This document shows, in pieces, positions 1 through 59,216 of a DNA stretch of 64,000 nucleotides. A model generated the notes under the pieces. It was not told the DNA's origin. It ran no database searches and was given only the letters and a program-made list of their open reading frames with translations. Numbering within the stretch: the first letter of the stretch is position 1; every line of letters begins with the position of its first letter. Origin of the DNA: Nemertoderma westbladi (Eukaryota > Animalia > Xenacoelomorpha); NCBI GenBank assembly GCA_032718475.1, contig JAUCBJ010000640.1:31767-95766 (forward strand), read 5' to 3'. The translations under genes and the position numbers were made by a program.

Positions 1-3000
1 TAAAGATGGAGTAGTTCAGGTTAATATACCTCCGAGGTGAGTAAATAAAGAGGGAGTTTAGGTTAATATACCTCCGAGGTGAGTAAATAAAGAGAGAGTT
101 TAGGTTAATATACCTCCGAGGTGAGTAAATAAAGAGGGAGTTTAGGTTAATATACCTCCGAGGTGAGTAAATAAAGATGGAGTAGTTCAGGTTAATATAC
201 CTCCGAGGTGAGTAAATAAAGAGGGAGTTTAGGTTAATATACCTCCGAGGTGAGTAAATAAAGAGAGAGTTTAGGTTAATATACCCCCGAGGTGAGTAAA
301 TAAAGAGAGAGTTCAGGTTAATATACCCCCGAGGTGAGTAAATAAAGACAGAGTAGTTTAGGTTAATATACCCCCGAGGTGAGTAAATAAAGAGGGAGTA
401 GTTCAGGTTAATATACCCCCGAGGTGAGTAAATAAAGAGAGAGTTTAGGTTAATATACCTCCGAGGTGAGTAAATAAAGAGAGAGTTTAGGTTAATATAC
501 CCCCGAGGTGAGTAAATAAAGAGAGAGTTCAGGTTAATATACCTCCGAGGTGAGTAAATAAAGAGGGAGTTTAGGTTAATATACCTCCGAGGTGAGTAAA
601 TAAAGAGAGAGTTTAGGTTAATATACCTCCGAGGTGAGTAAATAAAGAGGGAGTTTAGGTTAATATACCTCCGAGGTGAGTAAATAAAGAGGGAGTTTAG
701 GTTAATATACCTCCGAGGTGAGTAAATAAAGAGAGAGTTTAGGTTAATATACCTCCGAGGTGAGTAAATAAAGAGGGAGTTTAGGTTAATATACCTCCGA
801 GGTGAGTAAATAAAGATGGAGTAGTTCAGGTTAATATACCTCCGAGGTGAGTAAATAAAGAGGGAGTTTAGGTTAATATACCTCCGAGGTGAGTAAATAA
901 AGAGAGAGTTTAGGTTAATATACCCCCGAGGTGAGTAAATAAAGAGAGAGTTCAGGTTAATATACCCCCGAGGTGAGTAAATAAAGACAGAGTAGTTTAG
1001 GTTAATATACCCCCGAGGTGAGTAAATAAAGAGGGAGTAGTTCAGGTTAATATACCCCCGAGGTGAGTAAATAAAGAGAGAGTTTAGGTTAATATACCTC
1101 CGAGGTGAGTAAATAAAGAGAGAGTTTAGGTTAATATACCCCCGAGGTGAGTAAATAAAGAGAGAGTTCAGGTTAATATACCTCCGAGGTGAGTAAATAA
1201 AGAGAGAGTTTAGGTTAATATACCTCCGAGGTGAGTAAATAAAGAGAGAGTTTAGGTTAATATACCCCCGAGGTGAGTAAATAAAGAGAGAGTTCAGGTT
1301 AATATACCCCGAGGTGAGTAAATAAAGAGAGAGTTCAGGTTAATATACCTCCGAGGTGAGTAAATAAAGAGAGAGTTTAGGTTAATATACCCCCGAGGTG
1401 AGTAAATAAAGAGGGAGTAGTTCAGGTTAATATACCCCCGAGGTGAGTAAATAAAGAGAGAGTTTAGGTTAATATACCTCCGAGGTGAGTAAATAAAGAG
1501 AGAGTTTAGGTTAATATACCCCCGAGGTGAGTAAATAAAGAGAGAGTTCAGGTTAATATACCTCCGAGGTGAGTAAATAAAGAGGGAGTAGTTCAGGTTA
1601 ATATACCCCCGAGGTGAGTAAATAAAGAGAGAGTTTAGGTTAATATACCCCCGAGGTGAGTAAATAAAGAGAGAGTTCAGGTTAATATACCCCCGAGGTG
1701 AGTAAATAAAGAGGGAGTTTAGGTTAATATACCCCCGAGGTGAGTAAATAAAGAGAGAGTTTAGGTTAATATACCCCCGAGGTGAGTAAATAAAGAGAGA
1801 GTTCAGGTTAATATACCTCCGAGGTGAGTAAATAAAGAGAGAGTTCAGGTTAATATACCCCCGAGGTGAGTAAATAAAGAGGGAGTAGTTCAGGTTAATA
1901 TACCCCCGAGGTGAGTAAATAAAGAGAGAGTTTAGGTTAATATACCTCCGAGGTGAGTAAATAAAGAGAGAGTTTAGGTTAATATACCTCCGAGGTGAGT
2001 AAATAAAGAGGGAGTAGTTCAGGTTAATATACCTCCGAGGTGAGTAAATAAAGAGAGAGTTCAGGTTAATATACCTCCGAGGTGAGTAAATAAAGAGGGA
2101 GTTTAGGTTAATATACCCCCGAGGTGAGTAAATAAAGAGAGAGTTTAGGTTAATATACCTCCGAGGTGAGTAAATAAAGAGAGAGTAGTTCAGGTTAATA
2201 TACCTCCGAGGTGAGTAAATAAAGAGAGAGTAGTTCAGGTTAATATACCCCCGAGGTGAGTAAATAAAGAGGGAGTTTAGGTTAATATACCCCCGAGGTG
2301 AGTAAATAAAGAGGGAGTAGTTCAGGTTAATATACCTCCGAGGTGAGTAAATAAAGAGAGAGTTCAGGTTAATATACCCCCGAGGTGAGTAAATAAAGAG
2401 GGAGTAGTTCAGGTTAATATACCCCCGAGGTGAGTAAATAAAGAGAGAGTTTAGGTTAATATACCTCCGAGGTGAGTAAATAAAGAGAGAGTTTAGGTTA
2501 ATATACCCCCGAGGTGAGTAAATAAAGAGAGAGTTCAGGTTAATATACCTCCGAGGTGAGTAAATAAAGAGGGAGTAGTTCAGGTTAATATACCCCCGAG
2601 GTGAGTAAATAAAGAGAGAGTTTAGGTTAATATACCCCCGAGGTGAGTAAATAAAGAGAGAGTTCAGGTTAATATACCCCCGAGGTGAGTAAATAAAGAG
2701 GGAGTTTAGGTTAATATACCCCCGAGGTGAGTAAATAAAGAGAGAGTTCAGGTTAATATACCTCCGAGGTGAGTAAATAAAGAGGGAGTTTAGGTTAATA
2801 TACCCCCGAGGTGAGTAAATAAAGAGAGAGTTTAGGTTAATATACCTCCGAGGTGAGTAAATAAAGAGAGAGTAGTTCAGGTTAATATACCTCCGAGGTG
2901 AGTAAATAAAGAGAGAGTAGTTCAGGTTAATATACCCCCGAGGTGAGTAAATAAAGAGGGAGTTTAGGTTAATATACCCCCGAGGTGAGTAAATAAAGAG

Positions 3001-6000
3001 GGAGTAGTTCAGGTTAATATACCTCCGAGGTGAGTAAATAAAGAGAGAGTTCAGGTTAATATACCCCCGAGGTGAGTAAATAAAGAGGGAGTAGTTCAGG
3101 TTAATATACCCCCGAGGTGAGTAAATAAAGAGAGAGTTTAGGTTAATATACCTCCGAGGTGAGTAAATAAAGAGAGAGTTTAGGTTAATATACCCCCGAG
3201 GTGAGTAAATAAAGAGAGAGTTCAGGTTAATATACCTCCGAGGTGAGTAAATAAAGAGGGAGTAGTTCAGGTTAATATACCCCCGAGGTGAGTAAATAAA
3301 GAGAGAGTTTAGGTTAATATACCCCCGAGGTGAGTAAATAAAGAGAGAGTTCAGGTTAATATACCCCCGAGGTGAGTAAATAAAGAGGGAGTTTAGGTTA
3401 ATATACCCCCGAGGTGAGTAAATAAAGAGAGAGTTTAGGTTAATATACCCCCGAGGTGAGTAAATAAAGAGAGAGTTCAGGTTAATATACCTCCGAGGTG
3501 AGTAAATAAAGAGAGAGTTTAGGTTAATATACCTCCGAGGTGAGTAAATAAAGAGAGAGTTTAGGTTAATATACCTCCGAGGTGAGTAAATAAAGAGGGA
3601 GTAGTTCAGGTTAATATACCCCCGAGGTGAGTAAATAAAGAGAGAGTTTAGGTTAATATACCTCCGAGGTGAGTAAATAAAGAGGGAGTTTAGGTTAATA
3701 TACCCCCGAGGTGAGTAAATAAAGAGAGAGTTTAGGTTAATATACCTCCGAGGTGAGTAAATAAAGAGGGAGTTTAGGTTAATATACCTCCGAGGTGAGT
3801 AAATAAAGAGGGAGTTTAGGTTAATATACCCCCGAGGTGAGTAAATAAAGAGAGAGTTTAGGTTAATATACCTCCGAGGTGAGTAAATAAAGAGGGAGTA
3901 GTTCAGGTTAATATACCCCCGAGGTGAGTAAATAAAGAGAGAGTTTAGGTTAATATACCTCCGAGGTGAGTAAATAAAGAGGGAGTTTAGGTTAATATAC
4001 CTCCGAGGTGAGTAAATAAAGAGAGAGTTTAGGTTAATATACCTCCGAGGTGAGTAAATAAAGAGAGAGTTTAGGTTAATATACCTCCGAGGTGAGTAAA
4101 TAAAGAGAGAGTTTAGGTTAATATACCCCCGAGGTGAGTAAATAAAGAGGGAGTAGTTCAGGTTAATATACCTCCGAGGTGAGTAAATAAAGAGGGAGTT
4201 TAGGTTAATATACCTCCGAGGTGAGTAAATAAAGAGAGAGTTTAGGTTAATATACCTCCGAGGTGAGTAAATAAAGAGAGAGTTTAGGTTAATATACCTC
4301 CGAGGTGAGTAAATAAAGAGAGAGTTTAGGTTAATATACCCCCGAGGTGAGTAAATAAAGAGGGAGTAGTTCAGGTTAATATACCCCCGAGGTGAGTAAA
4401 TAAAGAGGGAGTTCAGGTTAATATACCTCCGAGGTGAGTAAATAAAGAGGGAGTAGTTCAGGTTAATATACCCCCGAGGTGAGTAAATAAAGAGAGAGTT
4501 TAGGTTAATATACCTCCGAGGTGAGTAAATAAAGAGGGAGTAGTTCAGGTTAATATACCTCCGAGGTGAGTAAATAAAGAGAGAGTTTAGGTTAATATAC
4601 CCCCGAGGTGAGTAAATAAAGAGAGAGTTTAGGTTAATATACCCCCGAGGTGAGTAAATAAAGAGAGAGTAGTTCAGGTTAATATACCTCCGAGGTGAGT
4701 AAATAAAGAGAGAGTTTAGGTTAATATACCTCCGAGGTGAGTAAATAAAGAGAGAGTTTAGGTTAATATACCCCCGAGGTGAGTAAATAAAGAGAGAGTA
4801 GTTCAGGTTAATATACCTCCGAGGTGAGTAAATAAAGAGGGAGTAGTTCAGGTTAATATACCTCCGAGGTGAGTAAATAAAGAGAGAGTTTAGGTTAATA
4901 TACCCCCGAGGTGAGTAAATAAAGAGGGAGTAGTTCAGGTTAATATACCTCCGAGGTGAGTAAATAAAGAGGGAGTTTAGGTTAATATACCTCCGAGGTG
5001 AGTAAATAAAGAGGGAGTTTAGGTTAATATACCTCCGAGGTGAGTAAATAAAGAGGGAGTAGTTCAGGTTAATATACCTCCGAGGTGAGTAAATAAAGAG
5101 GGAGTAGTTCAGGTTAATATACCTCCGAGGTGAGTAAATAAAGAGGGAGTAGTTCAGGTTAATATACCTCCGAGGTGAGTAAATAAAGAGGGAGTAGTTC
5201 AGGTTAATATACCTCCGAGGTGAGTAAATAAAGAGGGAGTAGTTCAGGTTAATATACCTCCGAGGTGAGTAAATAAAGAGGGAGTAGTTCAGGTTAATAT
5301 ACCTCCGAGGTGAGTAAATAAAGAGAGAGTTTAGGTTAATATACCCCCGAGGTGAGTAAATAAAGAGGGAGTAGTTCAGGTTAATATACCTCCGAGGTGA
5401 GTAAATAAAGAGGGAGTTTAGGTTAATATACCTCCGAGGTGAGTAAATAAAGAGGGAGTTTAGGTTAATATACCTCCGAGGTGAGTAAATAAAGAGGGAG
5501 TAGTTCAGGTTAATATACCTCCGAGGTGAGTAAATAAAGAGAGAGTTTAGGTTAATATACCTCCGAGGTGAGTAAATAAAGAGAGAGTTTAGGTTAATAT
5601 ACCTCCGAGGTGAGTAAATAAAGAGAGAGTTCAGGTTAATATACCTCCGAGGTGAGTAAATAAAGAGAGAGTTTAGGTTAATATACCCCCGAGGTGAGTA
5701 AATAAAGAGAGAGTTTAGGTTAATATACCTCCGAGGTGAGTAAATAAAGAGGGAGTAGTTCAGGTTAATATACCTCCGAGGTGAGTAAATAAAGAGGGAG
5801 TAGTTCAGGTTAATATACCTCCGAGGTGAGTAAATAAAGAGGGAGTAGTTCAGGTTAATATACCTCCGAGGTGAGTAAATAAAGAGAGAGTTTAGGTTAA
5901 TATACCCCCGAGGTGAGTAAATAAAGAGGGAGTAGTTCAGGTTAATATACCTCCGAGGTGAGTAAATAAAGAGGGAGTTTAGGTTAATATACCTCCGAGG

Positions 6001-9000
6001 TGAGTAAATAAAGAGGGAGTTTAGGTTAATATACCTCCGAGGTGAGTAAATAAAGAGGGAGTAGTTCAGGTTAATATACCTCCGAGGTGAGTAAATAAAG
6101 AGAGAGTTTAGGTTAATATACCTCCGAGGTGAGTAAATAAAGAGAGAGTTTAGGTTAATATACCTCCGAGGTGAGTAAATAAAGAGAGAGTTCAGGTTAA
6201 TATACCTCCGAGGTGAGTAAATAAAGAGAGAGTTTAGGTTAATATACCCCCGAGGTGAGTAAATAAAGAGGGAGTAGTTCAGGTTAATATACCCCCGAGG
6301 TGAGTAAATAAAGAGAGAGTTTAGGTTAATATACCCCCGAGGTGAGTAAATAAAGAGGGAGTTCAGGTTAATATACCTCCGAGGTGAGTAAATAAAGAGA
6401 GAGTTTAGGTTAATATACCTCCGAGGTGAGTAAATAAAGAGAGAGTTTAGGTTAATATACCTCCGAGGTGAGTAAATAAAGAGAGAGTTTAGGTTAATAT
6501 ACCTCCGAGGTGAGTAAATAAAGAGAGAGTTTAGGTTAATATACCCCCGAGGTGAGTAAATAAAGAGGGAGTAGTTCAGGTTAATATACCTCCGAGGTGA
6601 GTAAATAAAGAGGGAGTTTAGGTTAATATACCTCCGAGGTGAGTAAATAAAGAGAGAGTTTAGGTTAATATACCTCCGAGGTGAGTAAATAAAGAGAGAG
6701 TTTAGGTTAATATACCTCCGAGGTGAGTAAATAAAGAGAGAGTTTAGGTTAATATACCCCCGAGGTGAGTAAATAAAGAGGGAGTAGTTCAGGTTAATAT
6801 ACCCCCGAGGTGAGTAAATAAAGAGGGAGTTCAGGTTAATATACCCCCGAGGTGAGTAAATAAAGAGAGAGTTTAGGTTAATATACCTCCGAGGTGAGTA
6901 AATAAAGAGAGAGTTTAGGTTAATATACCTCCGAGGTGAGTAAATAAAGAGGGAGTTTAGGTTAATATACCCCCGAGGTGAGTAAATAAAGAGAGAGTTT
7001 AGGTTAATATACCTCCGAGGTGAGTAAATAAAGAGAGAGTTTAGGTTAATATACCTCCGAGGTGAGTAAATAAAGAGGGAGTTTAGGTTAATATACCCCC
7101 GAGGTGAGTAAATAAAGAGGGAGTTTAGGTTAATATACCCCCGAGGTGAGTAAATAAAGAGGGAGTTTAGGTTAATATACCCCCGAGGTGAGTAAATAAA
7201 GAGGGAGTAGTTCAGGTTAATATACCTCCGAGGTGAGTAAATAAAGAGGGAGTTTAGGTTAATATACCTCCGAGGTGAGTAAATAAAGAGAGAGTTTAGG
7301 TTAATATACCTCCGAGGTGAGTAAATAAAGAGAGAGTTTAGGTTAATATACCTCCGAGGTGAGTAAATAAAGAGAGAGTTTAGGTTAATATACCCCCGAG
7401 GTGAGTAAATAAAGAGGGAGTAGTTCAGGTTAATATACCCCCGAGGTGAGTAAATAAAGAGGGAGTTCAGGTTAATATACCCCCGAGGTGAGTAAATAAA
7501 GAGAGAGTTTAGGTTAATATACCTCCGAGGTGAGTAAATAAAGAGAGAGTTTAGGTTAATATACCTCCGAGGTGAGTAAATAAAGAGGGAGTTTAGGTTA
7601 ATATACCCCCGAGGTGAGTAAATAAAGAGAGAGTTTAGGTTAATATACCTCCGAGGTGAGTAAATAAAGAGGGAGTTTAGGTTAATATACCTCCGAGGTG
7701 AGTAAATAAAGAGGGAGTTTAGGTTAATATACCTCCGAGGTGAGTAAATAAAGAGGGAGTTTAGGTTAATATACCCCCGAGGTGAGTAAATAAAGATGGA
7801 GTTTAGGTTAATATACCCCCGAGGTGAGTAAATAAAGAGAGAGTTTAGGTTAATATACCTCCGAGGTGAGTAAATAAAGAGGGAGTTTAGGTTAATATAC
7901 CCCCGAGGTGAGTAAATAAAGAGGGAGTAGTTCAGGTTAATATACCTCCGAGGTGAGTAAATAAAGAGGGAGTTTAGGTTAATATACCTCCGAGGTGAGT
8001 AAATAAAGAGAGAGTTTAGGTTAATATACCTCCGAGGTGAGTAAATAAAGAGAGAGTTTAGGTTAATATACCTCCGAGGTGAGTAAATAAAGAGAGAGTT
8101 TAGGTTAATATACCCCCGAGGTGAGTAAATAAAGAGGGAGTAGTTCAGGTTAATATACCCCCGAGGTGAGTAAATAAAGAGGGAGTTCAGGTTAATATAC
8201 CCCCGAGGTGAGTAAATAAAGAGAGAGTTTAGGTTAATATACCTCCGAGGTGAGTAAATAAAGAGAGAGTTTAGGTTAATATACCTCCGAGGTGAGTAAA
8301 TAAAGAGGGAGTTTAGGTTAATATACCCCCGAGGTGAGTAAATAAAGAGAGAGTTTAGGTTAATATACCTCCGAGGTGAGTAAATAAAGAGAGAGTTTAG
8401 GTTAATATACCTCCGAGGTGAGTAAATAAAGAGGGAGTTTAGGTTAATATACCCCCGAGGTGAGTAAATAAAGAGGGAGTTTAGGTTAATATACCCCCGA
8501 GGTGAGTAAATAAAGAGAGAGTTCAGGTTAATATACCTCCGAGGTGAGTAAATAAAGAGGGAGTTTAGGTTAATATACCCCCGAGGTGAGTAAATAAAGA
8601 GGGAGTAGTTCAGGTTAATATACCCCCGAGGTGAGTAAATAAAGAGAGAGTACAGGTTAATATACCCCCGAGGTGAGTAAATAAAGAGGGAGTTTAGGTT
8701 AATATACCCCCGAGGTGAGTAAATAAAGAGGGAGTAGTTCAGGTTAATATACCCCCGAGGTGAGTAAATAAAGAGAGAGTTTAGGTTAATATACCTCCGA
8801 GGTGAGTAAATAAAGAGAGAGTTTAGGTTAATATACCTCCGAGGTGAGTAAATAAAGAGGGAGTTTAGGTTAATATACCCCCGAGGTGAGTAAATAAAGA
8901 GAGAGTTTAGGTTAATATACCTCCGAGGTGAGTAAATAAAGAGAGAGTTTAGGTTAATATACCCCCGAGGTGAGTAAATAAAGAGAGAGTTTAGGTTAAT

Positions 9001-12000
9001 ATACCTCCGAGGTGAGTAAATAAAGAGAGAGTTCAGGTTAATATACCTCCGAGGTGAGTAAATAAAGAGGGAGTTTAGGTTAATATACCCCCGAGGTGAG
9101 TAAATAAAGAGGGAGTAGTTCAGGTTAATATACCCCCGAGGTGAGTAAATAAAGAGGGAGTAGTTCTGGTTAATATACCTCCGAGGTGAGTAAATAAAGA
9201 GAGAGTTTAGGTTAATATACCTCCGAGGTGAGTAAATAAAGAGGGAGTTTAGGTTAATATACCCCCGAGGTGAGTAAATAAAGAGAGAGTTTAGGTTAAT
9301 ATACCTCCGAGGTGAGTAAATAAAGAGAGAGTTTAGGTTAATATACCTCCGAGGTGAGTAAATAAAGAGGGAGTTTAGGTTAATATACCCCCGAGGTGAG
9401 TAAATAAAGAGGGAGTAGTTCAGGTTAATATACCCCCGAGGTGAGTAAATAAAGAGGGAGTTCAGGTTAATATACCCCCGAGGTGAGTAAATAAAGAGAG
9501 AGTTTAGGTTAATATACCTCCGAGGTGAGTAAATAAAGAGGGAGTTTAGGTTAACATACCCCCGAGGTGAGTAAATAAAGAGGGAGTAGTTCAGGTTAAT
9601 ATACCCCCGAGGTGAGTAAATAAAGAGAGAGTTTAGGTTAATATACCTCCGAGGTGAGTAAATAAAGAGAGAGTTTAGGTTAATATACCCCCGAGGTGAG
9701 TAAATAAAGAGGGAGTTCAGGTTAATATACCCCCGAGGTGAGTAAATAAAGAGAGAGTTTAGGTTAATATACCTCCGAGGTGAGTAAATAAAGAGGGAGT
9801 TTAGGTTAATATACCCCCGAGGTGAGTAAATAAAGAGAGAGTTTAGGTTAATATACCTCCGAGGTGAGTAAATAAAGAGAGAGTTTAGGTTAATATACCT
9901 CCGAGGTGAGTAAATAAAGAGAGAGTTTAGGTTAATATACCTCCGAGGTGAGTAAATAAAGAGGGAGTTCAGGTTAATATACCCCCGAGGTGAGTAAATA
10001 AAGAGAGAGTTTAGGTTAATATACCTCCGAGGTGAGTAAATAAAGAGGGAGTTTAGGTTAATATACCCCCGAGGTGAGTAAATAAAGAGAGAGTTTAGGT
10101 TAATATACCTCCGAGGTGAGTAAATAAAGAGAGAGTTTAGGTTAATATACCTCCGAGGTGAGTAAATAAAGAGAGAGTTTAGGTTAATATACCTCCGAGG
10201 TGAGTAAATAAAGAGAGAGTTTAGGTTAATATACCTCCGAGGTGAGTAAATAAAGAGGGAGTTTAGGTTAATATACCCCCGAGGTGAGTAAATAAAGAGA
10301 GAGTTTAGGTTAATATACCTCCGAGGTGAGTAAATAAAGAGAGAGTTTAGGTTAATATACCTCCGAGGTGAGTAAATAAAGAGGGAGTTCAGGTTAATAT
10401 ACCCCCGAGGTGAGTAAATAAAGAGAGAGTTTAGGTTAATATACCTCCGAGGTGAGTAAATAAAGAGGGAGTTCAGGTTAATATACCCCCGAGGTGAGTA
10501 AATAAAGAGAGAGTTTAGGTTAATATACCTCCGAGGTGAGTAAATAAAGAGGGAGTTTAGGTTAATATACCCCCGAGGTGAGTAAATAAAGAGGGAGTAG
10601 TTCAGGTTAATATACCCCCGAGGTGAGTAAATAAAGAGAGAGTTTAGGTTAATATACCTCCGAGGTGAGTAAATAAAGAGAGAGTTTAGGTTAATATACC
10701 CCCGAGGTGAGTAAATAAAGAGGGAGTTCAGGTTAATATACCCCCGAGGTGAGTAAATAAAGAGGGAGTTTAGGTTAATATACCTCCGAGGTGAGTAAAT
10801 AAAGAGGGAGTAGTTCAGGTTAATATACCCCCGAGGTGAGTAAATAAAGAGAGAGTTTAGGTTAATATACCTCCGAGGTGAGTAAATAAAGAGAGAGTTT
10901 AGGTTAATATACCCCCGAGGTGAGTAAATAAAGAGGGAGTTCAGGTTAATATACCCCCGAGGTGAGTAAATAAAGAGAGAGTTTAGGTTAATATACCTCC
11001 GAGGTGAGTAAATAAAGAGGGAGTTTAGGTTAATATACCCCCGAGGTGAGTAAATAAAGAGGGAGTAGTTCAGGTTAATATACCCCCGAGGTGAGTAAAT
11101 AAAGAGAGAGTTTAGGTTAATATACCTCCGAGGTGAGTAAATAAAGAGAGAGTTTAGGTTAATATACCCCCGAGGTGAGTAAATAAAGAGGGAGTTCAGG
11201 TTAATATACCCCCGAGGTGAGTAAATAAAGAGAGAGTTTAGGTTAATATACCTCCGAGGTGAGTAAATAAAGAGGGAGTTTAGGTTAATATACCCCCGAG
11301 GTGAGTAAATAAAGAGGGAGTAGTTCAGGTTAATATACCCCCGAGGTGAGTAAATAAAGAGGGAGTTCAGGTTAATATACCCCCGAGGTGAGTAAATAAA
11401 GAGAGAGTTTAGGTTAATATACCTCCGAGGTGAGTAAATAAAGAGAGAGTTTAGGTTAATATACCTCCGAGGTGAGTAAATAAAGAGAGAGTTTAGGTTA
11501 ATATACCTCCGAGGTGAGTAAATAAAGAGAGAGTTTAGGTTAATATACCTCCGAGGTGAGTAAATAAAGAGAGAGTTTAGGTTAATATACCTCCGAGGTG
11601 AGTAAATAAAGAGAGAGTTTAGGTTAATATACCTCCGAGGTGAGTAAATAAAGAGAGAGTTTAGGTTAATATACCTCCGAGGTGAGTAAATAAAGAGAGA
11701 GTTTAGGTTAATATACCTCCGAGGTGAGTAAATAAAGAGAGAGTTTAGGTTAATATACCTCCGAGGTGAGTAAATAAAGAGAGAGTTTAGGTTAATATAC
11801 CTCCGAGGTGAGTAAATAAAGAGAGAGTTCAGGTTAATATACCTCCGAGGTGAGTAAATAAAGAGAGAGTTTAGGTTAATATACCTCCGAGGTGAGTAAA
11901 TAAAGAGAGAGTTTAGGTTAATATACCTCCGAGGTGAGTAAATAAAGAGAGAGTTTAGGTTAATATACCTCCGAGGTGAGTAAATAAAGAGAGAGTTTAG

Positions 12001-39000: not shown

Positions 39001-42000
39001 TGAGTAAATAAAGAGGGAGTAGTTCAGGTTAATATACCTCCGAGGTGAGTAAATAAAGAGAGAGTTTAGGTTAATATACCTCCGAGGTGAGTAAATAAAG
39101 AGGGAGTAGTTCAGGTTAATATACCCCGAGGTGAGTAAATAAAGAGGGAGTTCAGGTTAATATACCCCGAGGTGAGTAAATAAAGAGGGAGTTTAGGTTA
39201 ATATACCTCCGAGGTGAGTAAATAAAGAGGGAGTTTAGGTTAATATACCTCCGAGGTGAGTAAATAAAGAGAGAGTTTAGGTTAATATACCTCCGAGGTG
39301 AGTAAATAAAGAGGGAGTAGTTCAGGTTAATATACCTCCGAGGTGAGTAAATAAAGAGAGAGTTTAGGTTAATATACCTCCGAGGTGAGTAAATAAAGAG
39401 GGAGTAGTTCAGGTTAATATACCTCCGAGGTGAGTAAATAAAGAGAGAGTTTAGGTTAATATACCTCCGAGGTGAGTAAATAAAGAGAGAGTTTAGGTTA
39501 ATATACCTCCGAGGTGAGTAAATAAAGAGAGAGTTTAGGTTAATATACCCCCGAGGTGAGTAAATAAAGAGGGAGTTTAGGTTAATATACCTCCGAGGTG
39601 AGTAAATAAAGAGAGAGTTTAGGTTAATATACCTCCGAGGTGAGTAAATAAAGAGAGAGTTTAGGTTAATATACCTCCGAGGTGAGTAAATAAAGAGGGA
39701 GTAGTTCAGGTTAATATACCTCCGAGGTGAGTAAATAAAGAGAGAGTTTAGGTTAATATACCTCCGAGGTGAGTAAATAAAGAGGGAGTAGTTCAGGTTA
39801 ATATACCTCCGAGGTGAGTAAATAAAGAGAGAGTTTAGGTTAATATACCTCCGAGGTGAGTAAATAAAGAGGGAGTAGTTCAGGTTAATATACCTCCGAG
39901 GTGAGTAAATAAAGAGGGAGTTTAGGTTAATATACCTCCGAGGTGAGTAAATAAAGAGAGAGTTCAGGTTAATATACCTCCGAGGTGAGTAAATAAAGAG
40001 GGAGTAGTTCAGGTTAATATACCTCCGAGGTGAGTAAATAAAGAGAGAGTTTAGGTTAATATACCTCCGAGGTGAGTAAATAAAGAGGGAGTAGTTCAGG
40101 TTAATATACCTCCGAGGTGAGTAAATAAAGAGGGAGTTCAGGTTAATATACCCCGAGGTGAGTAAATAAAGAGAGAGTTTAGGTTAATATACCTCCGAGG
40201 TGAGTAAATAAAGAGGGAGTAGTTCAGGTTAATATACCTCCGAGGTGAGTAAATAAAGAGGGAGTTCAGGTTAATATACCCCGAGGTGAGTAAATAAAGA
40301 GGGAGTTTAGGTTAATATACCTCCGAGGTGAGTAAATAAAGAGGGAGTAGTTCAGGTTAATATACCTCCTAGGTGAGTAAATAAAGAGAGAGTTTAGGTT
40401 AATATACCTCCGAGGTGAGTAAATAAAGAGGGAGTTTAGGTTAATATACCTCCGAGGTGAGTAAATAAAGAGGGAGTTCAGGTTAATATACCCCGAGGTG
40501 AGTAAATAAAGAGAGAGTTCAGGTTAATATACCTCCGAGGTGAGTAAATAAAGAGAGAGTTCAGGTTAATATACCCCCGAGGTGAGTAAATAAAGAGAGA
40601 GTTTAGGTTAATATACCTCCGAGGTGAGTAAATAAAGAGAGAGTTTAGGTTAATATACCTCCGAGGTGAGTAAATAAAGAGAGAGTTTAGGTTAATATAC
40701 CTCCGAGGTGAGTAAATAAAGAGAGAGTTCAGGTTAATATACCTCCGAGGTGAGTAAATAAAGAGAGAGTAGTTCAGGTTAATATACCTCCGAGGTGAGT
40801 AAATAAAGAGGGAGTAGTTCAGGTTAATATACCCCCGAGGTGAGTAAATAAAGAGAGAGTTTAGGTTAATATACCTCCGAGGTGAGTAAATAAAGAGGGA
40901 GTTTAGGTTAATATACCCCCGAGGTGAGTAAATAAAGAGAGAGTTTAGGTTAATATACCCCCGAGGTGAGTAAATAAAGAGAGAGTTCAGGTTAATATAC
41001 CCCCGAGGTGAGTAAATAAAGAGAGAGTTTAGGTTAATATACCTCCGAGGTGAGTAAATAAAGAGGGAGTAGTTCAGGTTAATATACCTCCGAGGTGAGT
41101 AAATAAAGAGAGAGTTTAGGTTAATATACCTCCGAGGTGAGTAAATAAAGAGGGAGTTTAGGTTAATATACCCCGAGGTGAGTAAATAAAGAGGGAGTAG
41201 TTCAGGTTAATATACCTCCGAGGTGAGTAAATAAAGAGGGAGTAGTTCAGGTTAATATACCTCCGAGGTGAGTAAATAAAGAGAGAGTTTAGGTTAATAT
41301 ACCTCCGAGGTGAGTAAATAAAGAGGGAGTAGTTCAGGTTAATATACCTCCGAGGTGAGTAAATAAAGAGGGAGTAGTTCAGGTTAATATACCTCCGAGG
41401 TGAGTAAATAAAGAGAGAGTTTAGGTTAATATACCTCCGAGGTGAGTAAATAAAGAGGGAGTTTAGGTTAATATACCCCGAGGTGAGTAAATAAAGAGGG
41501 AGTAGTTCAGGTTAATATACCTCCGAGGTGAGTAAATAAAGAGGGAGTAGTTCAGGTTAATATACCTCCGAGGTGAGTAAATAAAGAGAGAGTTTAGGTT
41601 AATATACCTCCGAGGTGAGTAAATAAAGAGGGAGTAGTTCAGGTTAATATACCTCCGAGGTGAGTAAATAAAGAGAGAGTTTAGGTTAATATACCTCCGA
41701 GGTGAGTAAATAAAGAGGGAGTTTAGGTTAATATACCTCCGAGGTGAGTAAATAAAGAGGGAGTAGTTCAGGTTAATATACCTCCGAGGTGAGTAAATAA
41801 AGAGGGAGTAGTTCAGGTTAATATACCTCCGAGGTGAGTAAATAAAGAGAGAGTTTAGGTTAATATACCTCCGAGGTGAGTAAATAAAGAGGGAGTAGTT
41901 CAGGTTAATATACCCCCGAGGTGAGTAAATAAAGAGAGAGTTTAGGTTAATATACCTCCGAGGTGAGTAAATAAAGAGGGAGTAGTTCAGGTTAATATAC

Positions 42001-45000
42001 CTCCGAGGTGAGTAAATAAAGAGAGAGTTTAGGTTAATATACCCCCGAGGTGAGTAAATAAAGAGAGAGTTCAGGTTAATATACCTCCGAGGTGAGTAAA
42101 TAAAGAGGGAGTAGTTCAGGTTAATATACCCCCGAGGTGAGTAAATAAAGAGAGAGTTTAGGTTAATATACCTCCGAGGTGAGTAAATAAAGAGGGAGTA
42201 GTTCAGGTTAATATACCTCCGAGGTGAGTAAATAAAGAGAGAGTTTAGGTTAATATACCCCCGAGGTGAGTAAATAAAGAGAGAGTTCAGGTTAATATAC
42301 CTCCGAGGTGAGTAAATAAAGAGAGAGTTCAGGTTAATATACCTCCGAGGTGAGTAAATAAAGAGGGAGTTTAGGTTAATATACCCCCGAGGTGAGTAAA
42401 TAAAGAGGGAGTTTAGGTTAATATACCTCCGAGGTGAGTAAATAAAGAGGGAGTAGTTCAGGTTAATATACCTCCGAGGTGAGTAAATAAAGAGAGAGTT
42501 TAGGTTAATATACCCCCGAGGTGAGTAAATAAAGAGGGAGTTTAGGTTAATATACCCCCGAGGTGAGTAAATAAAGAGGGAGTTTAGGTTAATATACCCC
42601 CGAGGTGAGTAAATAAAGAGGGAGTTTAGGTTAATATACCTCCGAGGTGAGTAAATAAAGAGGGAGTTTAGGTTAATATACCTCCGAGGTGAGTAAATAA
42701 AGAGGGAGTAGTTCAGGTTAATATACCTCCGAGGTGAGTAAATAAAGAGGGAGTAGTTCAGGTTAATATACCTCCGAGGTGAGTAAATAAAGAGGGAGTT
42801 TAGGTTAATATACCTCCGAGGTGAGTAAATAAAGAGGGAGTTTAGGTTAATATACCTCCGAGGTGAGTAAATAAAGAGGGAGTAGTTCAGGTTAATATAC
42901 CTCCGAGGTGAGTAAATAAAGAGGGAGTAGTTCAGGTTAATATACCTCCGAGGTGAGTAAATAAAGAGGGAGTTTAGGTTAATATACCTCCGAGGTGAGT
43001 AAATAAAGAGGGAGTTTAGGTTAATATACCTCCGAGGTGAGTAAATAAAGAGGGAGTAGTTCAGGTTAATATACCTCCGAGGTGAGTAAATAAAGAGAGA
43101 GTTTAGGTTAATATACCCCCGAGGTGAGTAAATAAAGAGAGAGTAGTTCAGGTTAATATACCCCCGAGGTGAGTAAATAAAGAGAGAGTTTAGGTTAATA
43201 TACCTCCGAGGTGAGTAAATAAAGAGGGAGTAGTTCAGGTTAATATACCTCCGAGGTGAGTAAATAAAGAGAGAGTTTAGGTTAATATACCCCCGAGGTG
43301 AGTAAATAAAGAGAGAGTTTAGGTTAATATACCTCCGAGGTGAGTAAATAAAGAGGGAGTAGTTCAGGTTAATATACCTCCGAGGTGAGTAAATAAAGAG
43401 AGAGTTTAGGTTAATATACCTCCGAGGTGAGTAAATAAAGAGGGAGTTTAGGTTAATATACCTCCGAGGTGAGTAAATAAAGAGGGAGTAGTTCAGGTTA
43501 ATATACCTCCGAGGTGAGTAAATAAAGAGAGAGTTTAGGTTAATATACCTCCGAGGTGAGTAAATAAAGAGGGAGTTTAGGTTAATATACCTCCGAGGTG
43601 AGTAAATAAAGAGGGAGTTTAGGTTAATATACCTCCGAGGTGAGTAAATAAAGAGGGAGTAGTTCAGGTTAATATACCTCCGAGGTGAGTAAATAAAGAG
43701 GGAGTAGTTCAGGTTAATATACCCCCGAGGTGAGTAAATAAAGAGGGAGTTTAGGTTAATATACCTCCGAGGTGAGTAAATAAAGAGAGAGTTTAGGTTA
43801 ATATACCTCCGAGGTGAGTAAATAAAGAGGGAGTAGTTCAGGTTAATATACCTCCGAGGTGAGTAAATAAAGAGAGAGTTTAGGTTAATATACCTCCGAG
43901 GTGAGTAAATAAAGAGAGAGTTTAGGTTAATATACCTCCGAGGTGAGTAAATAAAGAGAGAGTTTAGGTTAATATACCTCCGAGGTGAGTAAATAAAGAG
44001 AGAGTTTAGGTTAATATACCTCCGAGGTGAGTAAATAAAGAGGGAGTAGTTCAGGTTAATATACCTCCGAGGTGAGTAAATAAAGAGGGAGTAGTTCAGG
44101 TTAATATACCTCCGAGGTGAGTAAATAAAGAGGGAGTAGTTCAGGTTAATATACCTCCGAGGTGAGTAAATAAAGAGAGAGTTTAGGTTAATATACCTCC
44201 GAGGTGAGTAAATAAAGAGGGAGTTTAGGTTAATATACCTCCGAGGTGAGTAAATAAAGAGAGAGTTTAGGTTAATATACCTCCGAGGTGAGTAAATAAA
44301 GAGAGAGTTTAGGTTAATATACCTCCGAGGTGAGTAAATAAAGAGAGAGTTTAGGTTAATATACCTCCGAGGTGAGTAAATAAAGAGAGAGTTTAGGTTA
44401 ATATACCTCCGAGGTGAGTAAATAAAGAGGGAGTAGTTCAGGTTAATATACCTCCGAGGTGAGTAAATAAAGAGAGAGTAGTTCAGGTTAATATACCTCC
44501 GAGGTGAGTAAATAAAGAGGGAGTAGTTCAGGTTAATATACCTCCGAGGTGAGTAAATAAAGAGAGAGTTTAGGTTAATATACCTCCGAGGTGAGTAAAT
44601 AAAGAGGGAGTAGTTCAGGTTAATATACCTCCGAGGTGAGTAAATAAAGAGGGAGTTCAGGTTAATATACCTCCGAGGTGAGTAAATAAAGAGGGAGTTT
44701 AGGTTAATATACCTCCGAGGTGAGTAAATAAAGAGAGAGTTTAGGTTAATATACCTCCGAGGTGAGTAAATAAAGAGAGAGTTTAGGTTAATATACCTCC
44801 GAGGTGAGTAAATAAAGAGAGAGTTCAGGTTAATATACCTCCGAGGTGAGTAAATAAAGAGGGAGTTTAGGTTAATATACCTCCGAGGTGAGTAAATAAA
44901 GAGGGAGTAGTTCAGGTTAATATACCTCCGAGGTGAGTAAATAAAGAGGGAGTTTAGGTTAATATACCTCCGAGGTGAGTAAATAAAGAGGGAGTTTCAG

Positions 45001-48000
45001 GTTAATATACCTCCGAGGTGAGTAAATAAAGAGGGAGTTTAGGTTAATATACCTCCGAGGTGAGTAAATAAAGAGGGAGTAGTTCAGGTTAATATACCTC
45101 CGAGGTGAGTAAATAAAGAGAGAGTTTAGGTTAATATACCTCCGAGGTGAGTAAATAAAGAGGGAGTAGTTCAGGTTAATATACCTCCGAGGTGAGTAAA
45201 TAAAGAGAGAGTTTAGGTTAATATACCTCCGAGGTGAGTAAATAAAGAGAGAGTTTAGGTTAATATACCTCCGAGGTGAGTAAATAAAGAGAGAGTTTAG
45301 GTTAATATACCTCCGAGGTGAGTAAATAAAGAGAGAGTTTAGGTTAATATACCTCCGAGGTGAGTAAATAAAGAGGGAGTTTAGGTTAATATACCTCCGA
45401 GGTGAGTAAATAAAGAGGGAGTAGTTCAGGTTAATATACCTCCGAGGTGAGTAAATAAAGAGAGAGTTTAGGTTAATATACCTCCGAGGTGAGTAAATAA
45501 AGAGGGAGTTTAGGTTAATATACCTCCGAGGTGAGTAAATAAAGAGGGAGTAGTTCAGGTTAATATACCCCCGAGGTGAGTAAATAAAGAGAGAGTTCAG
45601 GTTAATATACCCCCGAGGTGAGTAAATAAAGAGAGTAGTTTAGGTTAATATACCCCCGAGGTGAGTAAATAAAGAGAGAGTTTAGGTTAATATACCTCCG
45701 AGGTGAGTAAATAAAGAGGGAGTAGTTCAGGTTAATATACCCCCGAGGTGAGTAAATAAAGAGGGAGTAGTTCAGGTTAATATACCCCCGAGGTGAGTAA
45801 ATAAAGAGAGAGTTCAGGTTAATATACCTCCGAGGTGAGTAAATAAAGAGAGAGTTCAGGTTAATATACCTCCGAGGTGAGTAAATAAAGAGGGAGTAGT
45901 TCAGGTTAATATACCTCCGAGGTGAGTAAATAAAGAGGGAGTTTAGGTTAATATACCTCCGAGGTGAGTAAATAAAGAGAGAGTTTAGGTTAATATACCT
46001 CCGAGGTGAGTAAATAAAGAGGGAGTAGTTCAGGTTAATATACCTCCGAGGTGAGTAAATAAAGAGGGAGTTTAGGTTAATATACCTCCGAGGTGAGTAA
46101 ATAAAGAGAGAGTTCAGGTTAATATACCTCCGAGGTGAGTAAATAAAGAGGGAGTAGTTCAGGTTAATATACCTCCGAGGTGAGTAAATAAAGAGAGAGT
46201 TTAGGTTAATATACCTCCGAGGTGAGTAAATAAAGAGGGAGTTTAGGTTAATATACCTCCGAGGTGAGTAAATAAAGAGGGAGTAGTTCAGGTTAATATA
46301 CCTCCGAGGTGAGTAAATAAAGAGGGAGTTTAGGTTAATATACCCCCGAGGTGAGTAAATAAAGAGAGAGTTTAGGTTAATATACCTCCGAGGTGAGTAA
46401 ATAAAGAGGGAGTAGTTCAGGTTAATATACCTCCGAGGTGAGTAAATAAAGAGAGAGTTTAGGTTAATATACCTCCGAGGTGAGTAAATAAAGAGGGAGT
46501 AGTTCAGGTTAATATACCTCCGAGGTGAGTAAATAAAGAGAGAGTTTAGGTTAATATACCTCCGAGGTGAGTAAATAAAGAGGGAGTAGTTCAGGTTAAT
46601 ATACCTCCGAGGTGAGTAAATAAAGAGAGAGTTTAGGTTAATATACCTCCGAGGTGAGTAAATAAAGAGGGAGTTTCAGGTTAATATACCTCCGAGGTGA
46701 GTAAATAAAGAGAGAGTTTAGGTTAATATACCTCCGAGGTGAGTAAATAAAGAGGGAGTAGTTCAGGTTAATATACCTCCGAGGTGAGTAAATAAAGAGA
46801 GAGTTTAGGTTAATATACCTCCGAGGTGAGTAAATAAAGATATAGTTTAGGTTAATATACCTCCGAGGTGAGTAAATAAAGATATAGTTCAGGTTAATAT
46901 TCCTCCGAGGTGAGTAAATAAAGAGGGAGTAGTTCAGGTTAATATACCTCCGAGGTGAGTAAATAAAGAGAGAGTTTAGGTTAATATACCTCCGAGGTGA
47001 GTAAATAAAGAGGGAGTAGTTCAGGTTAATATACCTCCGAGGTGAGTAAATAAAGAGAGAGTTTAGGTTAATATACCCCGAGGTGAGTAAATAAAGAGAG
47101 AGTTTAGGTTAATATACCCCCGAGGTGAGTAAATAAAGAGAGAGTTTAGGTTAATATACCCCGAGGTGAGTAAATAAAGAGAGAGTTTAGGTTAATATAC
47201 CTCCGAGGTGAGTAAATAAAGAGAGAGTTTAGGTTAATATACCTCCGAGGTGAGTAAATAAAGAGAGAGTTCAGGTTAATATACCCCGAGGTGAGTAAAT
47301 AAAGAGAGAGTTTAGGTTAATATACCTCCGAGGTGAGTAAATAAAGAGGGAGTTTAGGTTAATATACCTCCGAGGTGAGTAAATAAAGAGAGAGTTCAGG
47401 TTAATATACCCCGAGGTGAGTAAATAAAGAGAGAGTTTAGGTTAATATACCTCCGAGGTGAGTAAATAAAGAGAGAGTTTAGGTTAATATACCTCCGAGG
47501 TGAGTAAATAAAGAGAGAGTTTAGGTTAATATACCTCCGAGGTGAGTAAATAAAGAGGGAGTTTAGGTTAATATACCTCCGAGGTGAGTAAATAAAGAGA
47601 GAGTTTAGGTTAATATACCTCCGAGGTGAGTAAATAAAGAGAGAGTTTAGGTTAATATACCCCGAGGTGAGTAAATAAAGAGAGAGTTTAGGTTAATATA
47701 CCTCCGAGGTGAGTAAATAAAGAGAGAGTTTAGGTTAATATACCTCCGAGGTGAGTAAATAAAGAGAGAGTTTAGGTTAATATACCTCCGAGGTGAGTAA
47801 ATAAAGAGAGAGTTCAGGTTAATATACCCCGAGGTGAGTAAATAAAGAGAGAGTTTAGGTTAATATACCTCCGAGGTGAGTAAATAAAGAGAGAGTTTAG
47901 TTTAATATACCTCCGAGGTGAGTAAATAAAGAGGGAGTTTAGGTTAATATACCTCCGAGGTGAGTAAATAAAGAGAGAGTTCAGGTTAATATACCCCGAG

Positions 48001-49663
48001 GTGAGTAAATAAAGAGAGAGTTTAGGTTAATATACCTCCGAGGTGAGTAAATAAAGAGAGAGTTTAGGTTAATATACCTCCGAGGTGAGTAAATAAAGAG
48101 AGAGTTTAGGTTAATATACCTCCGAGGTGAGTAAATAAAGAGAGAGTTTAGGTTAATATACCTCCGAGGTGAGTAAATAAAGAGAGAGTTTAGGTTAATA
48201 TACCTCCGAGGTGAGTAAATAAAGAGAGAGTTTAGGTTAATATACCTCCGAGGTGAGTAAATAAAGAGAGAGTTTAGGTTAATATACCTCCGAGGTGAGT
48301 AAATAAAGAGAGAGTTTAGGTTAATATACCTCCGAGGTGAGTAAATAAAGAGGGAGTTTAGGTTAATATACCTCCGAGGTGAGTAAATAAAGAGAGAGTT
48401 TAGGTTAATATACCTCCGAGGTGAGTAAATAAAGAGGGAGTTTAGGTTAATATACCTCCGAGGTGAGTAAATAAAGAGAGAGTTTAGGTTAATATACCTC
48501 CGAGGTGAGTAAATAAAGAGAGAGTTTAGGTTAATATACCTCCGAGGTGAGTAAATAAAGAGAGAGTTTAGGTTAATATACCCCCGAGGTGAGTAAATAA
48601 AGAGGGAGTTTAGGTTAATATACCCCCGAGGTGAGTAAATAAAGAGAGAGTTTAGGTTAATATACCTCCGAGGTGAGTAAATAAAGAGAGAGTTTAGGTT
48701 AATATACCCCCGAGGTGAGTAAATAAAGAGAGAGTTTAGGTTAATATACCCCCGAGGTGAGTAAATAAAGAGGGAGTTTAGGTTAATATACCTCCGAGGT
48801 GAGTAAATAAAGAGAGAGTTTAGGTTAATATACCTCCGAGGTGAGTAAATAAAGAGAGAGTTTAGGTTAATATACCTCCGAGGTGAGTAAATAAAGAGGG
48901 AGTTTAGGTTAATATACCCCCGAGGTGAGTAAATAAAGAGGGAGTTTAGGTTAATATACCTCCGAGGTGAGTAAATAAAGAGAGAGTTTAGGTTAATATA
49001 CCCCCGAGGTGAGTAAATAAAGAGGGAGTTTAGGTTAATATACCTCCGAGGTGAGTAAATAAAGAGAGAGTTTAGGTTAATATACCTCCGAGGTGAGTAA
49101 ATAAAGAGAGAGTTTAGGTTAATATACCCCCGAGGTGAGTAAATAAAGAGGGAGTTTAGGTTAATATACCTCCGAGGTGAGTAAATAAAGAGAGAGTTTA
49201 GGTTAATATACCTCCGAGGTGAGTAAATAAAGAGAGAGTTTAGGTTAATATACCTCCGAGGTGAGTAAATAAAGAGAGAGTTTAGGTTAATATACCCCCG
49301 AGGTGAGTAAATAAAGAGGGAGTTTAGGTTAATATACCTCCGAGGTGAGTAAATAAAGAGAGAGTTTAGGTTAATATACCTCCGAGGTGAGTAAATAAAG
49401 AGAGAGTTTAGGTTAATATACCTCCGAGGTGAGTAAATAAAGAGAGAGTTTAGGTTAATATACCCCCGAGGTGAGTAAATAAAGAGGGAGTTTAGGTTAA
49501 TATACCTCCGAGGTGAGTAAATAAAGAGAGAGTTTAGGTTAATATACCCCCGAGGTGAGTAAATAAAGAGGGAGTTTAGGTTAATATACCTCCGAGGTGA
49601 GTAAATAAAGAGAGAGTTTAGGTTAATATACCCCCGAGGTGAGTAAATAAAGAGGGAGTTTAG
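1..49663 (+). repeat. Giant tandem minisatellite/satellite array, 42-bp unit (45-bp and 41-bp variants), open at the left window edge
   Basis: Consensus GAGGTGAGTAAATAAAGAG(A/G)GAG[TAG]TT(T/C)AGGTTAATATACC(T/C)CC repeated head-to-tail with no unique spacer. Period 42 read directly (TAAAG at 601 and 643). Ends at ...AAAGAGGGAGTTTAG (49,663). About 1,150-1,180 copies is an estimate from length/unit size. Confidence 0.99.
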
Positions 49664-49834
49664 TTCTTTTGGGAGTTTAGTAGGACCAGATTATATGGGT
49701 TACTGCCCCTGCCTCTACGTTTTGTGCCTTATTTCACGGCGTGTTTTTCGCCTGCTTGATAACACATAAAGTGATAATAAATCTTCAGATGTGTCGCGTC
49801 GCTGATTTTCATAATTTATAATTTTATAATTTAG

Positions 49835-49989
49835 ATTTGAGGAACTAAGTAATTTAATTCAGGAACGCGAGGATAATACTTCGCAAATAAATCGGAGATT
49901 GGAGTTTATCGAGGACCAGGCCGAGAGGACTAACATTGTATTACAACACATCGTGGAAAAATTGAACGAAAGAACCCAAAAAACAACGA
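49835..49989 (+). CDS. TRPM2: TRPM2-like exon: C-terminal coiled coil (FEELSNLIQEREDNTSQINRRLEFIEDQAERTNIVLQHIVEKLNERTQKTT)
   Basis: TTTAG acceptor, GTAAGT donor, 155 nt open frame with heptad pattern resembling TRPM2 RLASLEEQVAQT..ALHWIV. Confidence 0.8.
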
Positions 49990-58093: not shown

Positions 58094-59216
58094 TCTCCTC
58101 GATAAAATTCCACCAATCAGAAAACAGATGTACAAACATTATTTTAGAATATCTCTTTGCACTTGCTATCATAGGCTGCCGTTCTTATATTACTGTGTTG
58201 AGATGCAGGACTGTAGCAATTGGTATACTGTATGAAAATTGTATTACAATTCAATGAAAGTGTTTTAATATAATATCAAATATTTGTTGTTTGACGCTCT
58301 CTACTTTATTACAGCTGCTTTTGCCGCTGACTACTGCTTTACTTAATACCATAAATAGAGGGCTTACTTATATACACATTGTTTGTTTATAGTCTGATAA
58401 AGTTTTGTGTCAGTTCTCTGAAAACCAGAGGCATAATAGCAGACACTTTGATGTCAATTTGTAGTCATTCGAATTAAGAAGACCCTTGTATTACTGAATG
58501 AAAAGTGTTTGGGAGAGGGTACAACTAACATATAATCCTGTAGTGTACCCTATATTGCTGCTTTTCAAAGTACTAAAATTGATTAAATTAATTATTTTGA
58601 TTTACATTAAACTTTTTGTCGAGATGAATTTTATTATAATTTATATAATCTTATAAGTTATAATATTGTCGACCCTCCCATTCGTGTTACTAAACTCACT
58701 ATTTGAGAAAACTTACCTGTTCTTTTAATATAAACGTTGTTTCAATATTACAGTACATTTACTAATATAAGTAATCTAAAATTATTAATTAATTATGTAT
58801 ATAGAATACTTTATATGAATTTTAATTATTTATCCATTTTATATAAATATTTTGTGCGATAATCTAAATACAACATCGCGATATTTATTGTATAACCCAG
58901 TGTGCACAGACTAAATACAGTTGAATTTCGGCCAATTTAAAATAGTGGCAAATGTTTTGTTCTTATACTTTTCTTTATCGAATAACATTATTTATCTTTA
59001 GACCAAATTCCTGGATTACATTATTAGTTCGGGAATCTTTTGTCTGGTTTACATTTTTCTGGGTACCTTTTGTACTTTTTCCTGTTTCTTTGTCCCGCCC
59101 AGAAACTTTTTATTTATGTAACAAAGTTTCTTACTCCCAATATATAAATCCATGAGTAGCACAATAATTGTGAGTATTGCATGTGATATTGGTGGTTATT
59201 TCGTTGCAAGTTGAAC

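Follow-up and report, generated by a model that had tools for sequence, protein, structure and literature searches.

More than 1,100 tandem copies of a splice donor in an intron of a TRPM2-like gene of Nemertoderma westbladi: probably a tolerated expansion, with the first donor used in a spliced transcript

How can a gene be expressed when one of its introns repeats the splice donor more than 1,100 times, each copy bringing an in-frame stop and a poly(A) signal motif, and do these copies serve a purpose? The question is raised by a stretch of 64,000 nucleotides from Nemertoderma westbladi (Xenacoelomorpha; assembly GCA_032718475.1, contig JAUCBJ010000640.1, positions 31,767 to 95,766 of the forward strand), which was analysed as a whole and is referred to here as the window. 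An initial annotation, made from the letters alone, had read the tandem array that fills most of this window as a set of splice decoys, a ladder of premature termination sites or a sink for the U1 small nuclear ribonucleoprotein (snRNP). We consider it probable that the array represents the first 42 to 45 nt of an intron of a TRPM2-like gene, including its genuine donor, in more than 1,160 copies, and that it is a tolerated and unselected expansion.

The array and the remainder of its intron were found to be arranged as follows (positions are those of the window; a slash marks the exon-intron cut).

1 to 49,663, plus strand: array of 42- or 45-nt units in tandem, at least 1,163 in number, occupying the 5′ portion of a single intron (repeat finding and unit count; left junction from the contigs of three DNA runs, X1 to X3)
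49,597 to 49,638, plus strand: last complete unit, with a strong donor at +1 to +6, AATAAA at +8 to +13, a purine-rich stretch, a second AG/GT at +24 to +27 and a 17-nt piece ending in GAG (read directly from the sequence)
49,639 to 49,663, plus strand: last partial unit, 25 nt, running into unique intron sequence (junction crossed by the X1 to X3 contigs)
49,664 to 49,834, plus strand: unique intron tail of 171 nt, whose acceptor is the one joined in the spliced transcript (spliced contig)

Tandem Repeats Finder reported one array at 13 to 49,663, with a period of 42, 1,163.2 copies and 94% matches. The array begins before the first base of the window, and all counts given for it are lower bounds. 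Counted from the donor there were 1,163 units; the 1,162 complete ones measured 42 nt (838 units), 45 nt (276), 41 nt (41), 44 nt (4) or 43 nt (3). That AG/GTGAGT runs directly into AAATAAA in each unit, as first described, was confirmed: the exact string AGGTGAGTAAATAAA (donor plus AAATAAA) occurred 1,158 times in 1 to 49,663 and was absent from the remaining 14,337 bases of the window. AATAAA occurred 1,163 times in the array, and a transcript would carry at least 1,156 exact GAG/GTGAGT sites (-3 to +6). A second donor-like site per unit, AG/GTTAATAT, is new here; it was detected in 1,159 units, and its letters from -2 to +8 were the same as those of a donor used further down the same gene (at 55,454). 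The array makes up more than 99% of the visible intron, such that its last donor copy lies 196 nt from the acceptor and the first more than 49 kb away.

On the plus strand all three frames of the array were closed, with a longest open stretch of 20 codons. One minus-strand frame of the unit lacks a stop, and the resulting minus-strand open frames (up to 4,511 codons) were rejected as genes, 94% of shuffled 42-nt units being likewise open on that strand. The transcribed strand was strongly G-skewed (GC skew about +0.43) and 64% purine, a make-up that favours R-loops and could drive repeat instability. A search of 48,500 to 64,000 against Rfam gave 0 matches. Metagenome contigs contained a 16-nt motif of the unit in at least 114 stretches; each of the 80 listed was a single match, and these were set aside as chance occurrences with no array.

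Public sequencing runs were examined for the unique exon region, which was present in four of the eight runs listed (three studies), in all cases as contigs; none of the four is recorded as RNA. The contigs were compared with 49,664 to 58,300 and with the last two units plus flank (49,580 to 50,240). Runs X1 to X3 are DNA runs from two studies, X2 and X3 being of one sample, and their contigs covered exons and introns alike. Their flank differed from that of the window at 19 of 715 letters (about 2.7%), which suggests that they represent another haplotype. In each of X1, X2 and X3 the same unique exon tail was joined to an array unit at the GAG before the donor, and the right array junction was also crossed by their contigs. 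Apart from ends derived from the repeat, a single further loose end was detected, which was weak and confined to X3 (2 records, agreement 0.64). These junctions, with the same single left flank in all three runs and one right flank, are those of a single locus and not of a dispersed satellite family.

The fourth run, X4, contributed one contig of 6,553 nt in which exons were joined at GT..AG boundaries and which spanned all seven downstream exons. Joints of this kind were absent from X1 to X3, and X4 was for this reason taken to be an RNA library. In its contig no letter of the array separated the upstream exon tail, which was part of 3,665 nt of upstream sequence, from 49,835 (record position 3,666). 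Since the same tail abuts the array in X1 to X3 and is spliced to 49,835 in X4, the unique sequence is the upstream exon, and its boundary with the intron is where the array starts. From -3 onwards the genuine first donor was identical to the donors of the array. The initial annotation had stated that, out of more than 1,100 identical donors, a full-length channel needs the first, and this was the donor used by the X4 transcript, the one spliced contig available. At four listed exon sites where X1 to X3 differ from the window (49,904, 53,450, 53,557 and 53,673) the letters of X4 were those of the window; the array is carried by both haplotypes. X4 gave no cover on the two array units compared; as contigs attest presence and not absence, this was given no weight.

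Downstream of the array, the parts of the host gene within the window were as follows.

49,835 to 49,989, plus strand: first exon downstream of the array, predicted to encode the C-terminal coiled coil of a TRPM channel (X4 spliced contig; alignment to four of five TRPM proteins)
50,092 to 50,184, plus strand: exon, linker (GT..AG joint from 49,989 to 50,092, in X4 only)
53,442 to 53,686, plus strand: exon, Ser/Thr-rich linker (run contigs)
53,943 to 54,139, plus strand: exon, predicted start of the NUDT9-H domain (contigs and structure search)
54,683 to 54,863, plus strand: exon, predicted NUDT9-H domain (best match sea-anemone TRPM2, E 2.6e-10)
55,190 to 55,453, plus strand: exon, predicted NUDT9-H domain with degenerate Nudix box (best match sea-anemone TRPM2, E 1.3e-12)
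55,452 to 55,461, plus strand: used donor, with the letters -2 to +8 of the second AG/GT of the array units (contigs and sequence comparison)
57,989 to 58,093, plus strand: last coding exon with the stop codon (run contigs)

When joined, the seven exons from 49,835 to 58,093 gave an open frame of 412 codons. Among solved structures, two of the three NUDT9-H exons had sea-anemone TRPM2 as their best match, and the third matched NUDT9 and sea-anemone TRPM2 weakly. The joined host part aligned at 38% over 272 residues with P0023, a protein with SLOG, TRPM2 and Ion_trans domains; P0023 and four other long matches all carry SLOG and TRPM2 domains, and Ion_trans is present in four of these five. The exon at 49,835 to 49,989 aligned to the stretch ahead of the linker in four of the five long TRPM matches, at low scores (41 to 46), and the 3,665 nt upstream in the X4 contig leave room for about 1,200 codons. 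A TRPM2-like channel is thus well supported as the predicted host gene, with its channel domain expected upstream of the window, and the earlier placement of the array in a transcribed-strand intron just ahead of the predicted coiled-coil and NUDT9-H exons was upheld. A Pfam search of single host exons found no family, word-based protein searches with two exons gave 2 and 0 matches (none from the host gene), and a HMMER search gave 478 matches, none of them close.

The Nudix box of the exon at 55,190 to 55,453 reads RALATQ, compared with REFGEE in NUDT9 and AEFGEE in sea-anemone TRPM2, and departs from the canonical box. Boxes of the RE/KE-F-x-EE types dominated among the 73 of 152 fetched relatives that aligned over this region, and invertebrate TRPM2 Nudix boxes are stated to be canonical (PMC6461439; this and the other papers cited are cited for their accessible portions). 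The RALATQ box seems to mark either a divergent paralogue or a gene that has independently lost ADP-ribose hydrolase activity. The donor at 55,452 to 55,461 that ends this exon, AAG/GTTAATAT, is predicted to be weak (-4.1 kcal/mol) and stands ahead of a 2.5-kb intron.

Whether stop, hexamer and donor were brought together by selection or by chance was addressed for each signal in turn. The array intron is of phase 2, its upstream exon ending in GAG and its downstream exon starting at 49,835, and any later donor reads R-stop, as the exon frame assumed earlier would require; every modelled alternative to the first donor led to an early stop. Such a stop is automatic, because a GTGA or GTAA donor in a phase-2 intron forces it. 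An ordinary intron of the same phase, at 54,140, likewise reads L-stop, the other five introns of the gene reach a stop within 4 to 44 codons, and in human coding introns more than 98% of latent donors have an in-frame stop upstream (PMC3510495). AATAAA was present in 465 of the 6,977 42-nt windows (6.7%) of the six other introns of the host gene, and in shuffled units it arose anywhere in 6.7% of trials and directly behind the donor in 1.2%. The AATAAA beside the donor is a single, modest coincidence that was then amplified, uncommon and not remarkable; the repeat is one ancestral event amplified, not 1,163 events. For the donor, 27 units off the common types were collected, of which 3 length variants were excluded and the 24 with substitutions collapsed to 19 events. 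Six of these 19 fell in the 9-nt donor (4.1 expected), which shows no protection of the donor; none fell in the hexamer, for which there is at most a hint. The proposal that three signals had been packed together for a purpose was not sustained: the stop is automatic, the hexamer is a modest coincidence, the donor is hit by rare substitutions at least as often as expected, and published arrays of this kind do not impair splicing (PMC1557585, PMC3087553). The contigs, which can miss minor products, showed no array-terminated or later-donor RNA and gave no support for a decoy, termination-ladder or U1-sink function.

The internal structure of the array suggests how it grew. Its units fell into 31 types, which formed a non-random mosaic with diverged block copies: 50 consecutive identical unit types recurred at an offset of 87 units and 30 at an offset of 419, compared with 6 to 7 in five shuffles. 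Such recurrence is typical of block slippage or unequal exchange and speaks against an artefact of assembly. As the non-repeat part of the intron is only 171 nt, its ancestor was likely about 0.2 kb long. A short duplication may have been seeded by the GAG that is common to the exon end and to intron positions +40 to +42; slippage and unequal exchange, copying blocks of up to 50 units, would then have expanded the intron from about 0.2 kb to more than 49.8 kb.

It could be argued that the window allele is unusually long, possibly harmful or partly mis-sized, and that the spliced transcript came from a shorter one. Contig depths give no copy number, the summed unit depth differing about 3- to 20-fold between X2 and X3 of one sample; unit variant content also differed between runs, with a 4-C variant present in X1 and not shown in the X2 or X3 contigs, a hint of fast turnover, and the related "mirage" clusters of amphioxus are unstable in length (PMC3087553). 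Countering this, one X1 unit-variant contig had a depth of 1,670 against 20.9 in the flank, which indicates a large array in a second sample too, a mosaic of 31 types with diverged block copies is not expected from a collapsed or looped assembly, and X4 has the exon alleles of the window. We regard this explanation as quite unlikely.

Under the favoured explanation of tolerated expansion, expression would depend on how the first donor is chosen. It may be captured by U1 on emerging from the polymerase, be defined across the upstream exon and stay tethered until the acceptor appears; in human cells an upstream donor is tethered to the polymerase via U1 during intron synthesis (PMC8316553). The later copies would remain silent for lack of a usable upstream acceptor, as in human F7 intron 7. 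AG sites within the array had a pyrimidine fraction of 0.19 and 5 to 6 extra AG, compared with 0.44 to 0.88 and 0 to 1 at the seven real acceptors of the gene, which would leave the later donors without a partner acceptor. Concealment of the later donors by RNA structure was considered and rejected, the array folding no differently from shuffles (z -0.38) and its donors being predicted to be no less open than real ones. A strong U1 site lies directly beside each AAUAAA, and U1 bound there would be predicted to mask the hexamer. Nearby poly(A) signals are silenced by U1 pairing (telescripting; PMC6946686), and masking of this kind would explain why so many poly(A) signals can be survived; it likely reflects tolerance, not purpose. 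The cost would likely be slower and slightly leakier expression, with no built-in switch.

The second AG/GT allows the intron to be imagined as removed in steps instead, the exon being joined to successive TTYAG sites of the array and each joint regenerating a donor, GAG/GTTAATAT, so that a unit would be a ratchet point plus a 17-nt cryptic exon. The site recurs in 1,159 units with -2 to +8 identical to a used donor, acceptor-donor plus short out-of-frame exon plus second donor is the layout of ratchet points in long introns (PMC8605326), and the end product would be the same mRNA as that of first-donor splicing, so the X4 contig is compatible with it. The acceptor side is, however, purine-rich, with 5 to 6 upstream AG and no pyrimidine tract; inclusion of one, two or three of the 17-nt pieces gives a stop; and the regenerated donor is predicted to pair at -4.2 kcal/mol compared with -12.4 kcal/mol for the donor 17 nt on, the reverse of the general ratchet-point pattern. 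Recursive removal is, in our judgement, very unlikely.

Several points weigh against tolerated expansion and should be set beside it. First-donor use was seen in a single contig, from one run whose RNA status is inferred only; contigs drop rare forms and may thus miss minor products, and the X4 sample may have an array of another length. In the 6-16 and CBS genes, which carry smaller arrays of the same kind, the next two pseudo-sites are also used (PMC1557585), and the masking of the hexamers by U1 is itself a prediction. None of the 19 rare substitution events fell in AATAAA, where 2.7 were expected (P 0.053; 0.12 on A/T sites only), and the common unit variants all lie outside -3 to +13; together the spared hexamer and the variant-free segment hint weakly at constraint or at homogenisation driven by sequence. 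The mutation test is also of low power, as selection per unit would be weak among 1,100 even in a functional array.

The same spared hexamer (0 of 19) would also fit a regulated ladder of latent donors and premature termination sites. A shortage of U1 or stress would then lead to cleavage at an array AAUAAA, the channel would end before the coiled coil, and array length would set the dose; the stop of the cleaved RNA would lie in a terminal exon and likely escape decay, and splicing from later donors would feed nonsense-mediated decay (NMD). Phase, stop and hexamer have the geometry that this requires, telescripting deficits on transcription surges and latent donors activated by stress are described (PMC6946686 and PMC3510495, respectively), and the array donors are predicted to pair with U1 at -12.4 kcal/mol compared with -4.1 to -10.7 kcal/mol for the six other donors of the gene. 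Against a ladder, the sole transcript recovered has its full length and crosses the junction without a break, neither stop nor hexamer needs selection (more than 98% of human latent donors in coding introns being behind an in-frame stop, PMC3510495), and one or a few units would suffice where 1,100 are present. We regard such a ladder as unlikely. An elaborated form of it, which we likewise hold to be improbable, would make the array a length-variable rheostat that senses U1 dose, with more than 1,000 self-masked poly(A) signals turning a U1 shortfall into a decay-resistant mRNA for a channel without coiled coil and NUDT9-H, and recursive steps at the second AG/GT aiding intron removal when U1 is ample.

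U1 is present in about a million copies per human cell. The suggestion that the nascent array RNA might bind so much U1 snRNP that other genes are affected or a local body forms draws on the number of exact donors in each transcript (at least 1,156), predicted to be about as accessible as real ones (folding z -0.38). In vertebrates no snRNP is more abundant than U1 (PMC6946686). The share bound by a few nascent copies would be from a fraction of a percent to a percent, and nothing points to a stable intron RNA; a sink of this kind is extremely unlikely.

The array has smaller relatives among known genes. It belongs to the class of boundary-spanning minisatellites typified by F7 intron 7 and the amphioxus mirages, as it has head-to-tail units, an overlap with the boundary, identical pseudo-sites, an mRNA made from the first donor (in the one spliced contig) and the junctions of a single locus. 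In F7 intron 7 the boundary lies within a 37-bp minisatellite, of whose 5 to 9 identical donors only the most upstream is used, for which an oriented 5′-to-3′ selection was proposed; the pseudo-sites listed number 4 to 8 in F7, 25 in 6-16 intron 2, 15 to 20 in CBS intron 13, 10 to 15 in LMNB2 and 16 to 18 in PDGF intron 4 (Borensztajn et al. 2006, PMC1557585). As in this variable-number repeat class, the first monomer spans the boundary, the genuine donor is reiterated identically and the most upstream copy gives the normal mRNA; unlike them, the present array has at least 1,162 pseudo-sites, takes up more than 99% of the visible intron, carries AATAAA and a second AG/GT in each unit and, to judge by its sequence, does not lie in a mammalian gene. 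Its copy number is about 45 times that of the largest published array that we found. The amphioxus mirages, an invertebrate-chordate counterpart in the Adh3 and globin genes, are also tandem copies of an exon-intron boundary with AG/GT, have units of 10 to 160 bp that evolve in concert and leave splicing undisturbed, whereas BflGb6 has 3 to 6 units in place of more than 1,100 and the unit described here holds only three exon letters (PMC3087553). What is new relative to this class is the far larger scale, the co-amplified poly(A) signal and the second donor-like AG/GT.

Likenesses to other systems were more partial. Latent 5′ splice sites are similarly unused intronic donors behind an in-frame stop, whose use feeds NMD and which stress could wake, yet they are scattered, dissimilar and about nine per intron, whereas these are copies of the genuine donor (PMC3510495). 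Ratchet points with cryptic recursive-splicing (RS) exons share the AG/GT, the short out-of-frame piece, the second donor and the long intron, and differ in that the array has no pyrimidine-rich acceptor and its regenerated donor is the weaker one (PMC8605326). With intronic poly(A) sites under telescripting control the likeness is at the level of sequence, AAUAAA lying at +8 to +13 of each U1-pairing donor. Genes on the Drosophila Y chromosome have giant introns filled with simple satellites, up to megabases in length; there, too, transcription and splicing have to cope with an intron enlarged by a tandem array, although the unit here is the splice donor itself. Literature searches aimed at donor-bearing repeats, with most subscription papers and supplements outside their scope, gave no array of this size and none with donor and AAUAAA in one unit.

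Even if neutral, the array is the most extreme natural test that we found of how the spliceosome chooses among identical donors, a question called open and debated in the F7 paper (PMC1557585). In the transcript found, the first donor was chosen at more than 49 kb from the acceptor, though the last copy lies 196 nt from it, which speaks for selection on a first-come basis during transcription and not by nearness to the acceptor. The locus also offers a natural titration of telescripting, as more than 1,100 AAUAAA are read through, each beside a U1 site, such that leakage per site could be tightly bounded from 3′-end data. Were array-terminated RNA to prove regulated, it would reveal a new mechanism by which a tandem repeat tunes a channel.

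Further repeats and mobile elements were observed in the remainder of the window. A second minisatellite (59,357 to 59,668, 63 bp x 5) lies about 60 bases upstream of what is apparently the final acceptor of a gene on the minus strand, whose candidate exons fall between 59,200 and 62,730; this repeat apparently spans no splice site. Within the introns of the host gene, an open frame of 186 codons at 51,994 to 52,551 (plus strand) was GC-rich, multi-copy in the DNA runs and without a Pfam family, and is probably the 3′ end of a mobile element. About 260 high-copy bases at about 54,159 to 54,419 are present in the window and skipped by the X1 to X3 contigs, likely an intronic insertion polymorphism. 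The last intron (about 55,512 to 57,905, plus strand) was filled by a frameshifted, high-copy non-LTR (long terminal repeat) retrotransposon in sense orientation (RVT_1, E 3.1e-7; very high contig depth).

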